NCBI GenBank assembly: GCA_964388795.1
Contig: CAYMBV010000001.1
Span: 238,701 to 302,700 of the forward strand
From: an uncultured Candidatus Saccharibacteria bacterium
GTDB lineage: Bacteria; Patescibacteriota; Saccharimonadia; Saccharimonadales; Saccharimonadaceae
Reading direction: 5' to 3'
Length of the DNA: 64,000 nucleotides
Positions 39,244-57,002 of this stretch are shown piece by piece. Under the pieces are notes generated by a model. It worked only from the letters and a program-made list of their open reading frames with translations, ran no database searches and was not told the DNA's origin. A program made the position numbers and the translations under genes. Each line of letters opens with the position of its first letter. Position 1 is the first letter of the stretch.

Positions 39244-40326
39244 ATGACTTCAATCAAGAAAGTACGAGTTCAAAACCTAAGATCTCATAAAGATTATATT
39301 ATTGAGTTCTCTCCAGAAGTGACGATTATTACCGGCGCAAACGGAAGTGGTAAGACGACTCTTCTTGAGGCAATACACCTCACATTACAGGGAAGTTCTT
39401 TTAAGGGTAGCGACGGTGAATTATTAAAAAAAGACTTACTCTGGTGGCGAATAGACACAGAATTTACTAATTCTGAAATACGAACCATTAAGTTCGATTC
39501 TCAAAAAGTAACCAGTCGAAAACAATTCACTATCGACAATAAAACGACCGCCCGCATACCCCAAAAGAATAAATACCCAGTTGTATTATTTGAACCAGAA
39601 GATCTACGCCTATTACATGGCTCCCCTACTCGCCGTCGCCGGTTTATTGATATTTTCATTAGTCAACTTAACCCACTCTACGGGCCGACGCTACGAAAAT
39701 ATGAACGTGCCCTAAAACAACGAAATAATGTGCTTAAAAGTTTAGCGAAAAATCACCTTTCATCTCAAGACGATACACTCTTTGCTTGGAATGTATCGCT
39801 TGCCGAACACGGCGCGTTTATTATTGAACAACGAATTGCTTTTATTGAACAAATCAACCAAAATCTTACAAAAATATATCAGGAAATAGCCGGCACAAAC
39901 GACGATGTTTCAGTTCACTATTCGCATACTTTTGTTGGTGATATAAAACAAAAACTCCTAAACGAACTACACGCCCATACTAATAAAGACATCTACCTAG
40001 GTAGTACATCGGTCGGCCCGCATCGACACGATGTTATTTTTGAAATTAATACCTCCCCCGCTCTATCGGTTGCATCACGCGGCGAGGCCCGAACAATTGT
40101 TTTAGCCCTGAAGTTTTTAGAGGTAGACATTATTGAACAATTAATTGATAAACAACCAATTATCCTTCTCGACGACGTTTTCTCTGAACTCGACGCAACG
40201 CGCCAGAAACTGCTCACGAGTCAGTTAAAAGGTCATCAAATTATTATCACTTCTGCAACCAGTCATGCTGGTGAAAGCCTAAGGCATGTCGAGCTAGACA
40301 CTAATGCCCGCCGTAGAAGTATTTAA
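39244..40326 (+). CDS. recF: DNA replication/repair protein RecF
   Basis: GANGSGKTTLLEAI, PTRRRRFID, GPHRHD, ASRGEAR, ILLDDVFSELD. Confidence 0.96.
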   Translation: MTSIKKVRVQNLRSHKDYIIEFSPEVTIITGANGSGKTTLLEAIHLTLQGSSFKGSDGELLKKDLLWWRIDTEFTNSEIRTIKFDSQKVTSRKQFTIDNKTTARIPQKNKYPVVLFEPEDLRLLHGSPTRRRRFIDIFISQLNPLYGPTLRKYERALKQRNNVLKSLAKNHLSSQDDTLFAWNVSLAEHGAFIIEQRIAFIEQINQNLTKIYQEIAGTNDDVSVHYSHTFVGDIKQKLLNELHAHTNKDIYLGSTSVGPHRHDVIFEINTSPALSVASRGEARTIVLALKFLEVDIIEQLIDKQPIILLDDVFSELDATRQKLLTSQLKGHQIIITSATSHAGESLRHVELDTNARRRSI

Positions 40327-40930
40327 TAGTATAGTCTTCTGGCTTAAAACCAAGTGACCATATTTTTTCTAAAGCCTTCTCTTTTCCTAAGCCTGCTTTA
40401 TCATAATAAACAACCGAAAGTATATCCTGGTTGTCTTTTTGGTAAGCGATGATGTAATCATCAGTACTTAAAGGTAAATACGCCTGAAGGGTCGGTTTAA
40501 CAAACATATCCTCTAGAGATATACAGGCGTCACTAGTACGACAGGTGATAACCGTGTCGCCATTTATCTCCCCTTTTCTGGTTGTTTGCATTGAGACATT
40601 CCAGGATGTATCTCCATCTTTCAACTTAACAGTAAAGGTGGAGAACCACGACTCCGGCGAGTATTTATACGACCCGTCTACTATAGAGGCATGATAAACA
40701 CTCTTGGTCGGATCTTTTATATATCTATATAAATCGTTCCCTAAATAACCAAAAGATTCTGGTGATATATAGGTTGTATAGTCAGAGAAATTATCAATAA
40801 TGACTGTTTTATCTGCTGTCTGTGTTGGGGGTATCTTAGGTATCGAGGCAAAATATATCACTAGAACAACAGAAATAATAATAAAAATCGCAGCTGTGAC
40901 AATAAGTATTAGTAGGGCTTTTCTATTCAT
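40301..40930 (-). CDS. Membrane-anchored hypothetical protein, last gene of the T4SS-like operon
   Basis: N-terminal TM, 209 aa; 1 bp after the upstream stop; 3' end overlaps recF convergently by 26 bp. Confidence 0.75.
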   Translation of the reverse strand: MNRKALLILIVTAAIFIIISVVLVIYFASIPKIPPTQTADKTVIIDNFSDYTTYISPESFGYLGNDLYRYIKDPTKSVYHASIVDGSYKYSPESWFSTFTVKLKDGDTSWNVSMQTTRKGEINGDTVITCRTSDACISLEDMFVKPTLQAYLPLSTDDYIIAYQKDNQDILSVVYYDKAGLGKEKALEKIWSLGFKPEDYTIKYFYGGH

Positions 40931-40931
40931 G

Positions 40932-42329
40932 CTAGTTATTTAAAAACTCCATCATTTTTTTACCCATCTCTTCTGCAATAGAGCTATCTAAAGGTGTTGC
41001 AACATTATTATATGTATATCTATTGGAGTGAATTGACTTAAATGCTTCAAATGATGGAAATTCGTAAACAGTCACCGAGCGTCCACTACCTCTATGACTA
41101 AAGCTTTGCGTAGCATTTGAATCACCACTCGACCAGTTGAGCTCAAGAGAGATGATTGATCCATCTGTGCCGACACCTACTATCGTTCCTGTGTGACCAG
41201 GTTGTCCAGATGAGCTACCTTCACCAATAGACCAGACTGAAAACGGTTGTAGGTTAGAACCATCAGGATTAACCGATGTATATATCTCTGGTATCGATGC
41301 AACAAGCTGATCTGCAACGTTCACACCGTTTGGAATCCCCCTTAACCTAGAGGGGTCCGGAAGGGTTCTTTTCACTAACCAAGCGGGACCCGCCGTACAG
41401 TACCCTGTCGTCCACGAACAATACCCGTCCGGTGTATCACTTGTGAGGATATCGCCCGCACAGTAATTAGTCTCCCAATTATCAACTAACTTCTTAGCCA
41501 CCTCAACCGCTTGATCAAACGTTAGGCCGCCCGCACCAATACTACAACTTCCCGCAGTACTGCCAGAGTCTTGATAAAGCTCAAGAAATTCGTTTGCTTT
41601 CTCAATACGCCCAGTTAGAACACCCGCGCCAGATACCCTGTCGGCTTCGGTAGGTACGTCATTAGACCGTTCAATAAGGGCATGGAAAAGCATCGTTGAT
41701 CCATTACCTTCTTGAGACTTAGCGCGTTGTGCGGCAAATTTACTATTATAGCTAGCAATTGTTGTATCACCATCAACTGACTTTTCGGCATTCAGTTGCT
41801 GTTGCCAAGTCATTGCACCGTACTCGCCGTCCCATAGATAGTTTAATTCAAATAGAAGAGCCTGGTCGTTATCTTTAAGGTCAACACCGGCCGCAGCCGC
41901 GGCATTTTCTAAACCAGTTCGTCTAGTGCCGGTCCATTGAATAATACCTAACCCACCGCCACCGCCTATTTCCTCTACTGACGCTGAAAAACTACTTTCG
42001 TGTGCAATATTACCCATTGCCCCAGCTGCAGCGACAGGTGTGAGTCCCCTATCTTTAAAATAATTCCAAGTTTTATCTTGGTTGGTTTGACCACTAAGGG
42101 ATGTAGGCGCTGGCCCAGTGAGACTACCACCCGACACCGCGCAACTATCACAGCCATAAAAAAGAATATTATTATTACTATAATAGTCGTAGTCACACCC
42201 AGCGACAGCACTAGCTGGTTGCGAGTAACTAAGGGTTGGTATTGACCCGACGATAAGTAAGAGAGCTAATACCTTTAATACAGTGGCTTTAGTGAGTATT
42301 TTATGAAAAGCTTTAAGATACGTTTTCAT
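40932..42329 (-). CDS. Secreted peptidoglycan hydrolase: phage-tail-type lysozyme + CHAP-like domain (VirB1 role)
   Basis: Signal peptide; WNYFKDRGLTPVAAAGAMGNIAHES…GLGIIQWTGTRR; C-terminal YCTAGPAW…GHTGTIVGV…ELN. Confidence 0.8.
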   Translation of the reverse strand: MKTYLKAFHKILTKATVLKVLALLLIVGSIPTLSYSQPASAVAGCDYDYYSNNNILFYGCDSCAVSGGSLTGPAPTSLSGQTNQDKTWNYFKDRGLTPVAAAGAMGNIAHESSFSASVEEIGGGGGLGIIQWTGTRRTGLENAAAAAGVDLKDNDQALLFELNYLWDGEYGAMTWQQQLNAEKSVDGDTTIASYNSKFAAQRAKSQEGNGSTMLFHALIERSNDVPTEADRVSGAGVLTGRIEKANEFLELYQDSGSTAGSCSIGAGGLTFDQAVEVAKKLVDNWETNYCAGDILTSDTPDGYCSWTTGYCTAGPAWLVKRTLPDPSRLRGIPNGVNVADQLVASIPEIYTSVNPDGSNLQPFSVWSIGEGSSSGQPGHTGTIVGVGTDGSIISLELNWSSGDSNATQSFSHRGSGRSVTVYEFPSFEAFKSIHSNRYTYNNVATPLDSSIAEEMGKKMMEFLNN

Positions 42330-42332
42330 TTT

Positions 42333-56427: not shown

Positions 56428-56464
56428 TCTGCGTTCATCTGTTAAAATAACCAAAGTCCAATAT

Positions 56465-56552
56465 GGAGAGGTGACCGAGTGGTTGATGGTACCGGTCTTG
56501 AAAACCGGCGTGGGGAGACTCACCGAGGGTTCGAATCCCTCCCTCTCCGCCA
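56465..56552 (+). tRNA. tRNA-Ser (TGA)
   Basis: GGAGAGG…CCGGT-CT-TGA-AA-ACCGG, long variable arm, GGTTCGAATCC, CCA. Confidence 0.97.
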
Positions 56553-56600
56553 ATTAAAAAAGCCCCGTAGGGCTCTTTTTATTTTCAGTTAACACTTTGA

Positions 56601-57002
56601 TTAGACGTCTGTAAACCCAGCCGACCCACCCGGCATTATAGTACCGAGAACAAAATTAATAGCGGCAAAGGCTAAGAAAGCAACAATAAGCCCGACAATC
56701 GCGTAAAGAATGGTGTTCTTTGCAGCGGTAACGGCTGCTGCATTACCGGCTGAAGTGGCGTAACGAAAACCACCGAAGATAACCATAATAACTGCTAAGG
56801 CGCCAACGGCAAACAAAAGAGTATTGGTAATGGTCGTAATAACGCCACCATCACCAAAGAGCGTTGCAGGTACACCGTTACCCCTTGCCGCTTCGGCACC
56901 TGCCTGAACACTTGATTGTGCGCCAACCGCGCTCACCCCAATAGTCAGCGCGACGGCGATTGAGAGTGTGAGGCTGGTGATAATTCCAAAAACTTTCTTC
57001 AT
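56601..57002 (-). CDS. VirB2/TrbC-like pilin 5 (separate, inverted, Cys-free)
   Basis: FGGFRYATSAGNAAAVTAAKNTILYAIVGL. Confidence 0.9.
   Translation of the reverse strand: MKKVFGIITSLTLSIAVALTIGVSAVGAQSSVQAGAEAARGNGVPATLFGDGGVITTITNTLLFAVGALAVIMVIFGGFRYATSAGNAAAVTAAKNTILYAIVGLIVAFLAFAAINFVLGTIMPGGSAGFTDV

Follow-up and report, generated by a model that had tools for sequence, protein, structure and literature searches.

A type IV secretion system beside the probable replication origin of a saccharibacterial chromosome

The secretion operon and the pilin genes

The stretch of DNA analysed here (64,000 nt of an uncultured Candidatus Saccharibacteria bacterium, GenBank assembly GCA_964388795.1, contig CAYMBV010000001.1, positions 238,701 to 302,700; hereafter the window) carries a type IV secretion system (T4SS) locus next to dnaA, dnaN and recF, which most probably represents a core, non-mobile system of the class Saccharimonadia. 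The source genome (775 kb in two contigs, C1 and C2; 97.75% complete) encodes a VirB4 that in sequence comparison was 90% identical to that of Candidatus Microsaccharimonas sossegonensis, and the organism is, judged from its genes, a close relative of Candidatus Microsaccharimonas belonging to an environmental lineage.

Directly after recF the minus strand is occupied by a run of eight open reading frames (ORFs) with an intergenic spacing of -1 to 53 nt. In the order of transcription they encode a 316-aa protein of unknown type, a 1021-aa VirB6-like protein, PrgI, a 313-aa TrsD-like protein, VirB4, an 880-aa protein, a lysozyme and a 209-aa protein; the last gene and recF overlap tail to tail by 26 bp. 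Both the ORFs and their order were as described in an earlier reading made from the sequence alone (the sequence-only reading), which had claimed a minus-strand operon ending in an overlap with recF. The promoter scan of the window found 25 promoters against 26 expected, i.e. chance level, and therefore no operon boundaries were drawn from it.

The VirB4 ATPase matched P-loop_TraG (100 bits) and AAA_10 (43 bits) in Pfam and passed the NCBIfam model NF045971 ('VirB4-like, CD1110 family') with 375.5 bits against a cut-off of 325, the alignment covering only positions 175-735 of the 752 in the model. The 313-aa protein gave sub-threshold matches (E 1e-5 to 4e-4) to the N-terminal parts of VirB4 models and to TrsD (NF041427); its orthologues carry the TraC-like PF26593, and it was present at 37-74% identity in 38 of 40 loci fetched from across the class as a synteny sample. 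Since the ATPase lacks the N-terminus of the model and the 313-aa protein matches these missing N-terminal positions, the VirB4 motor appears to be split into two genes, one for the N-domain protein and one for the 617-aa ATPase.

PrgI was recognized by its own profile match (47 bits against a cut-off of 27, E 4e-12). The 1021-aa protein itself had no Pfam match, and its profile retrieved only low-complexity and coiled-coil noise among the PDB sequences; its assignment comes from orthologues, 9 of 44 of which matched TrbL/VirB6 (PF04610), TrbL_3 (PF19590) also being carried by orthologues, and from a predicted layout of a signal/transmembrane (TM) segment, an ectodomain of ~480 aa with 16 cysteines, five TM helices and a cytoplasmic tail of ~290 aa. 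Hence, the VirB4, PrgI and lysozyme labels of the sequence-only reading stood on the profile matches of the proteins themselves, and its VirB6-like and VirB4-N-like labels mainly via orthologues. A second VirB6-like paralogue of 1136 aa, with 41% identity across the TM core, is located outside the window alone beside truB, ~57 kb from the locus (G000:C1:347668-351078); relatives have two tandem copies within the locus.

Upstream of the operon the VirB2-like pilin family PF18895 was found in five genes with six pilin domains, four of them scoring above the cut-off (52, 43, 40 and 32 bits). For each pilin a signal peptide and two TM helices per pilin domain are predicted. The paralogues are 25-54% identical within the four-gene array and up to 65% identical to pil5, the pair pil4-pil5 reaching 64-65%. 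This agrees with the divergent VirB2-like pilin genes claimed in the sequence-only reading, four of the five genes forming the divergent array and pil5 standing apart. The strong hairpin behind pil4 is likely a terminator closing the pilin operon. The interval of 40301-57002, taken in that reading for the system as a whole, does hold the T4SS parts, but hsp20, comF/gntX and tRNA-Ser inside it are neighbours and not parts of the system. By tblastn the comF/gntX neighbour was found in 2 of the 40 loci, few of which extend that far. An exact 16-nt repeat, AGTACCCAAGTGGCTG, is present at 57105 and 57189 (window 57105-57204), with its second copy inside tRNA-Ser(gct).

Table 1. Features of the secretion locus and its surroundings (coordinates are positions in the window; SEML1 numbers denote genes of Southlakia epibionticum ML1)
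Feature	Position	Strand	Basis or remark
First operon gene, 316-aa ORF, lipoprotein-like	51918-52868	-	no family match
Extended VirB6-like protein, 1021 aa	48799-51864	-	Pfam matches of orthologues and topology
PrgI/VirB3-like protein, 329 aa, two TM helices and long C-terminal tail	47800-48789	-	PF12666
TrsD-like (free-standing VirB4 N-domain-like) protein, 313 aa	46841-47782	-	counterpart of SEML1_0009
VirB4 ATPase, 617 aa, without the usual N-terminal domain	44988-46841	-	PF19044, PF12846, PF01935
Membrane protein, 880 aa, orphan all-helical family, directly downstream of virB4	42333-44975	-	counterpart of SEML1_0007
Secreted cell-wall hydrolase, 465 aa, phage-tail-type lysozyme at residues 83-248	40932-42329	-	PF18013
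Bitopic protein, 209 aa, N-terminal TM helix and extracytoplasmic domain	40301-40930	-	counterpart of SEML1_0005
pil1, VirB2-like pilin	52970-53407	+	PF18895, 20 bits, below cut-off
pil2, tandem double pilin	53404-54210	+	PF18895, two pilin domains
pil3, VirB2-like pilin	54210-54590	+	PF18895
pil4, VirB2-like pilin	54679-55083	+	PF18895
pil5, fifth VirB2-like pilin	56601-57002	-	PF18895, 32 bits
Hairpin, 11 pairs	55146-55171		between convergent pil4 and hsp20; scored on minus strand only
hsp20	55194-55730	-	separates pil5 from the array
comF/gntX-family phosphoribosyltransferase, competence-related	55735-56427	+	TIGR00201, E 1e-18, below cut-off
tRNA-Ser(tga)	56465-56552		between comF/gntX and pil5
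rpmH, rnpA, yidC, jag	36166-34109	-	other side of dnaA from the T4SS
rpmH-dnaA spacer, probable oriC	36167-36411 (245 bp)		three DnaA-box-like 9-mers at 36272-36366
dnaA	36412-37824	+	Pfam match
dnaN	38117-39217	+	Pfam match
recF	39244-40326	+	Pfam match

Conservation, mobility genes and the origin region

The distribution of VirB4 in the class was nearly universal: it was present in 191 of 201 genomes, in 159 of the 160 high-quality genomes and in 115 of 117 genera, at 65-91% identity. Its median identity at the genus, family, order and class level was 90, 83, 73 and 68%, respectively, compared to 74, 66, 59 and 51% for DnaA and 82, 65, 45 and 40% for DnaN, and at each of the taxonomic depths sampled VirB4 surpassed DnaA, DnaN and RecF in conservation. 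Synteny with dnaA-recF across the Saccharibacteria, which the sequence-only reading had set as a check, held in 38 of the 40 loci, where dnaN and/or recF lie next to the T4SS in the same convergent layout. The internal order (small protein, hydrolase, large protein, VirB4, TrsD-like, PrgI, VirB6-like) was kept as well, and the divergent pilin array followed the operon in ~28 of the 40 loci. A genome from the same order (locus L044, G018:C1:21927-41717) has virB4 directly after recF, and the genes for the large protein, hydrolase, small protein and VirB6-like protein are missing from the locus; the system of this genome may be split, given its second VirB4 match.

None of the six relaxase families searched (PF03432, PF02486, PF01076, PF03389, PF08751 and PF07514; MOBC, MOBB and MOBM were not searched) was found in the whole genome. 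Flanking att-like direct repeats were absent from the locus, its GC content showed no anomaly and matched that of the surroundings, and the single tyrosine recombinase of the genome is encoded ~86 kb away. The window itself contained no relaxase, coupling protein, integrase, att repeat or VirB9/VirB10, in accordance with the sequence-only reading, although the lack of a coupling protein did not extend to the genome, where two VirD4-like ATPases are encoded elsewhere. The first, a VirD4/TrwB-like protein of 893 aa (C2:106975-109656), passed the Pfam cut-offs of T4SS-DNA_transf, TrwB_AAD_bind and TraG-D_C, and its gene is located between metK and a group consisting of a sigma-like gene, an unknown gene, topA and dprA. 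The second, of 955 aa (C1:417945-420812), is 33% identical to the first; two unknown ORFs of ~145 aa precede its gene, and gyrB, with a probable gyrA, lies 2.5 kb downstream of it. Such VirD4-like homologues were present in 121 of 121 class genomes, usually in two copies, and on this sequence evidence both genes belong to the core of the class rather than being left over from an element. A genome search for an FtsK-type (TcpA-type) coupling protein gave one full match, presumably FtsK itself. For the Patescibacteria, about two type IV coupling protein (T4CP) homologues per genome have been described, mostly far from virB4, the ML1 homologue being reported as non-essential (PMC12102498).

These data bear directly on whether the locus might be a working or recently decayed integrative and conjugative element (ICE), using the distant T4CP-like genes and an unrecognized relaxase. 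Its ancestry in MPF-FATA conjugation machinery (VirB4 model; PMC12102498), the two VirD4-like ATPases of the genome and the tRNA genes at the pilin end of the locus, common ICE targets, would fit such an element. However, the T4CP-like genes belong to the class core as well and have housekeeping neighbours, and the ICE reading was rejected because of the near-universal presence, the conservation above DnaA and the fixed synteny across the class, together with the absence of the six relaxase families searched and of att-like repeats, the remote recombinase and the unremarkable GC content; we regard it as extremely improbable.

The locus is thus best read as a core chromosomal T4SS of the Saccharimonadia, derived from monoderm MPF-FATA conjugation machinery and vertically inherited beside oriC, to which we give a probability of roughly 0.9; that it is a T4SS and non-mobile is close to certain. 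The domesticated, non-conjugative system fixed at the origin that the sequence-only reading had envisaged is supported by the near-universal VirB4, the class-wide synteny and the absence of the six relaxase families, and neither a flanking relaxase, T4CP or att site nor the patchy distribution named there as arguing against it was found. Several points weigh on the other side. A VirB8-like (NTF2-fold) component was not demonstrated either by the fold search with the 209-aa protein or by the PDB sequence search with the 316-aa protein; the relaxase search covered only classes with a Pfam model that could be named; the universal VirD4-like ATPases leave room for a DNA-handling function; and the joining of the parts into a single machine is deduced from homology and operon structure.

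Concerning the origin itself, the three 9-mers of the rpmH-dnaA spacer are DnaA-box matches with one mismatch, and the local trio upstream of dnaA is suggestive by its clustering only, since such 9-mers across the whole window were at chance level (13 against 14.7 expected). The cumulative GC-skew minimum of contig C1 falls at ~56-59 kb of the window, on a curve that is flat from 44 to 62 kb, i.e. within ~20 kb of the origin region and to its right. With the rpmH-dnaA spacer taken as oriC, the 12.6-kb T4SS operon begins ~4 kb from the origin and is transcribed head-on to the rightward replication fork, dnaA-dnaN-recF being co-directional with it; the convergent arrangement of recF and the operon is kept across the class. 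The dnaA-dnaN spacer is occupied by a 91-aa ORF (37817-38092) that shares 8 nt with the end of dnaA. Ser, Leu, Thr and Pro are abundant in it, and it does not look like a coding sequence. Many relatives have ORFs of 72-108 aa in this spacer with almost no sequence similarity, one of them gene-called (L158). The spacer, with a DnaA-box-like site at 38048, may form the other half of a bipartite oriC. A transposase of the IS1595 family is inserted between dnaA and rpmH in the closest metagenomic relative (L155:11854-12711), inside the presumed origin region.

Accessory proteins and the possible role of the system

The secreted hydrolase matched PF18013 with 75 bits against a cut-off of 28 (E 1e-20). 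Of the lysozyme/CHAP label given to it in the sequence-only reading, the lysozyme part was therefore retained; no CHAP domain was detected in the protein itself. In 66 homologues the C-terminal half is 52-81% identical; two of them gave a CHAP match, and this half is probably a CHAP-like cysteine peptidase. By homology, the enzyme is the counterpart of SEML1_0006, annotated with two lysozyme-like domains and a cysteine proteinase (PMC10633639), and fills the VirB1 role. A cassette exchange of the lysozyme, suggested by apparently closer relatives outside the genus, was rejected, because those contigs are simply closer overall (dnaA 81-85% identical).

The 209-aa protein had no Pfam or NCBIfam match, but an iterative hidden Markov model (HMM) search recovered its family in 26 of the 40 loci; one TM segment is predicted. 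Its AlphaFold2 (AF2) model (pLDDT 68, below 50 in the middle) reaches good confidence only in the TM helix and in a small alpha/beta domain at the C-terminus, and a Foldseek search of the PDB with this model, confident only at its ends, found no fold neighbour (best E 0.3). The first operon gene more likely starts at Met26 (291 aa, 51918-52793), as in the gene call of the protein collection. Its product has an LAGC lipobox-like motif after a single hydrophobic segment, which is preceded by an RR pair; the ML1 gene at the same position has a twin-arginine (Tat) signal. Searches with the 316-aa sequence gave no Pfam or NCBIfam match, no PDB sequence hit and no iterative-HMM hit among the 40 loci, and a single homologue among 5.8 billion proteins.

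The 880-aa membrane protein, whose family is encoded right behind virB4 throughout the class, had no sequence match in Pfam, NCBIfam or the PDB. Its AF2 model is almost wholly helical (pTM 0.67, pLDDT 66), and the comparison with PDB folds returned only generic helical transporters (best E 0.16, TM-score at most 0.11). The protein has three moderately hydrophobic segments and conserved cysteines (ten Cys in this copy), and its family comprises at least 421 clusters at 50% identity, each of which aligns to residues ~1-800. What follows this shared part varies: among 48 close homologues the C-terminal domain is VanY in 24, M23 in 8, EEP in 2 and CHAP in 1, with none in 13, and among the 40 class-wide positional orthologues these heads are VanY (11), M23 (6), GDSL (2), M74 (2) and M14, C39_2 (C39-like) and EEP (1 each). 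Going by these domain matches, one C-terminal enzyme domain has been exchanged for another in different lineages. No such domain is present in the window's copy or in its nearest relatives (880-889 aa), and nothing was split off from the gene, as only 3 nt separate it from the next one.

The accessory genes also diverge fast. In the closest relatives found, where dnaA is 81-85% and VirB4 92-93% identical, identity is 24-41% for the 880-aa protein, 54-65% for the 209-aa protein and 55-59% for the hydrolase. The 880-aa protein is the only one whose identity falls out of kinship order, the closest relative having 24% and a more distant one 41%, and at the genus level the 880-aa, 209-aa and 316-aa proteins were mostly undetectable by tblastn. 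The 880-aa protein might be a T4SS-specific, membrane-anchored helical scaffold that presents an exchangeable enzyme head at the epibiont-host interface and acts as a host-range determinant, a proposal we put forward tentatively. According to it, the scaffold with its head, together with the fast-evolving 209-aa and 316-aa proteins and the pilins, would set which host envelope can be breached, and all of them would thereby be host-range determinants. If true, the new biology would be in the host-facing accessory genes and not in the VirB core, and the headless variant found here would mean that the scaffold itself carries the essential function.

The T4SS may serve attachment to, penetration of or exchange with the host, by analogy with the system of S. 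epibionticum ML1; the sole experimental support is that nearly all of the SEML1 T4SS genes were essential for epibiotic growth in transposon sequencing (Tn-seq) of that strain (PMC10633639), from which a need for the machine in growth on the host is extrapolated. In the proposed mechanism, the split VirB4 motor (313-aa TrsD-like protein plus 617-aa ATPase) would dock via PrgI/VirB3 onto the VirB6-like channel in the cytoplasmic membrane; the secreted lysozyme/cysteine peptidase and the 880-aa scaffold, which in most lineages bears an exchangeable wall-degrading head, would open the cell wall; and the VirB2-like pilins from the divergent operon would polymerise into a tube to the host bacterium. 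The resulting machine would be non-conjugative and would act as a conduit or anchor for macromolecule exchange at the epibiotic contact. The putative translocon, wall-opening hydrolases and VirB2 polymer are modelled on homologous, characterised T4SSs. That the system is a conduit for macromolecule exchange, as against adhesion alone, we judge to be an even bet.

A variant of the core-T4SS reading fixes the direction of this exchange: as a feeding tube, the system would import host nucleic acids or other macromolecules into an epibiont unable to make nucleotides, in a ComB/Ced-like manner. The absence of the six relaxase families from the genome and of a T4CP from the locus is compatible with import, as are the clustering of one T4CP-like gene with topA and dprA, the weak sub-threshold matches of VirB4 to models of the importer ATPases CedB and CedD, and the comF/gntX competence gene within the pilin region, a neighbourhood shared with TM7x (PMC7427843) but conserved in few loci only. 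In a cultivated relative from the phylum, tubular structures reaching the host and host-RNA uptake were reported, with T4SS pili as a possibility; these observations make import attractive, but the preprint leaves the mechanism open (bioRxiv 10.64898/2026.06.21.733656). Furthermore, the deletion of comEC in S. epibionticum abolished transformation but not viability, while the T4SS is essential (PMC12857230), which means that the essential role of the T4SS is not ComEC-dependent DNA uptake. On balance, we find the feeding-tube variant possible but doubtful.

The opposite direction was also considered, in which proteins (wall-, membrane- or nucleic-acid-degrading enzymes or regulators) would be injected into the host, similarly to the bacteria-killing T4SS of Xanthomonas. 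Protein export has been suggested by Wang et al. (PMC10633639), and it would suit both the repertoire of exchangeable scaffold heads (VanY, M23, M74 and M14 as DD-/LD-peptidases, besides CHAP, C39-like, GDSL esterase and EEP nuclease/phosphatase) and the extremely fast evolution of the host-facing genes next to a nearly frozen motor. However, the locus yielded no soluble effector or immunity pair, the scaffold copy of this genome is headless, and the fusion of the heads to a membrane scaffold makes their action at the interface likelier than translocation as toxins. The T4CP homologue, normally a recruiter of substrates, is, moreover, reported as non-essential in S. epibionticum (PMC12102498). 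Effector export therefore seems unlikely to us, slightly more so than import.

The general interest of the core T4SS comes from its carriers: the Saccharibacteria and other Patescibacteria account for a large part of bacterial diversity and live on host bacteria to which they attach, and few machines besides the T4SS have been shown to be essential for this epibiotic lifestyle.

Relation to known secretion systems

Several T4SSs work without a relaxase and partly without a coupling protein, including Bordetella Ptl, Brucella VirB, Helicobacter pylori ComB and the Ced system of the Sulfolobales. ComB and Ced import DNA, and ComB has VirB2-, VirB3-, VirB4- and VirB6-like parts; the bacterial members of this set are diderm systems with a VirB7-10 core. 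To our knowledge, none of the four is essential for growth and none is encoded in a conserved origin-proximal operon, and their likeness to the locus in the window is a functional analogy alone.

The relation to the MPF-FATA systems of the Firmicutes (CTn2 of the CD1110 type, PrgH-I-J-K-L of pCF10 and TrsC-D-E of pGO1) is closer. Shared with them are the CD1110-type VirB4, PrgI, the VirB6-like channel, the TrsD-like protein, the two-domain wall hydrolase and the lack of a VirB7/9/10 outer-membrane core. In contrast to these systems, the locus in the window is not mobile, has no relaxase or adjacent T4CP and has its VirB4 split from the N-domain, and it possesses VirB2-type pilins, which the Gram-positive systems lack, as well as the orphan 880-aa scaffold. 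Neither a VirB8-like protein nor a PrgB-like adhesin was recognized in it.

Within the Patescibacteria, a VirB4/VirB6/PrgI region with a 'secreted protein array' and gntX was described by McLean et al. (2020) in TM7x and Saccharibacteria (PMC7427843), and the survey of 2,474 virB4 loci by Quiñonero-Coronel et al. (2025) reported MPF-FATA ancestry, TrsD/PrgI/VirB6, VirB2 arrays, rare relaxases and proximity to dnaA/dnaN (PMC12102498). The window has in common with these the VirB4 clade, TrsD and PrgI beside virB4, the VirB2 array, the scarcity of relaxases, remote T4CPs, the nearness to dnaA/dnaN and gntX/comF. There is no substantive difference from the survey, although the large scaffold and its exchangeable heads are undescribed there apart from the mention of 'peptidase and lysozyme homologues downstream of virB4' in ML1. 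In a review from 2025 the system is listed as the first T4SS on which survival depends, and as a monoderm system that potentially bears pili (PMC12857230).

The closest counterpart is the T4SS of S. epibionticum ML1, defined by Wang et al. (2023) as SEML1_0006-0019 and characterised by a Gram-positive-like composition, unusual essential pilins and the lack of a relaxase or coupling proteins (PMC10633639). In ML1, recF is SEML1_0003, followed on the opposite strand by 0004 and by 0005, an exported PEGA-domain protein; 0007 is a 1113-aa protein with a C-terminal DD-peptidase, 0008 is VirB4, 0009 lies between VirB4 and PrgI (0010), 0011 and 0013 are VirB6-like, 0012 is NTF2-like, and 0014-0019 are pilins (PMC10633639). 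The position after recF, the strand layout, the gene order, the divergent pilins and the absence of a relaxase or T4CP from the locus are the same in both organisms, and our locus is the gene-for-gene orthologue of SEML1_0005-0019. The differences are limited to single components. The window has no counterpart of SEML1_0004, one VirB6-like gene in the locus instead of two, one lysozyme domain in the hydrolase instead of two, and a headless scaffold in place of one with a DD-peptidase head; its five pilin genes with six domains also differ from the ML1 set, one being displaced behind hsp20, comF and the tRNA gene. The 316-aa protein shares the position of SEML1_0012, which has a VirB8-like fold, but homology between the two is not shown.

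Given this gene-for-gene match, the locus is already known: it represents a published system in typical form, with minor variations particular to its lineage, and the interpretation of the sequence-only reading coincides with the published view (PMC7427843, PMC10633639, PMC12102498, PMC12857230). The window adds no new kind of system, but another complete and well-resolved example from near Microsaccharimonas, in which the useful details are the conservation of VirB4 above DnaA as against operon neighbours barely recognizable between close relatives, the headless scaffold and the universal VirD4-like ATPases encoded away from the locus.

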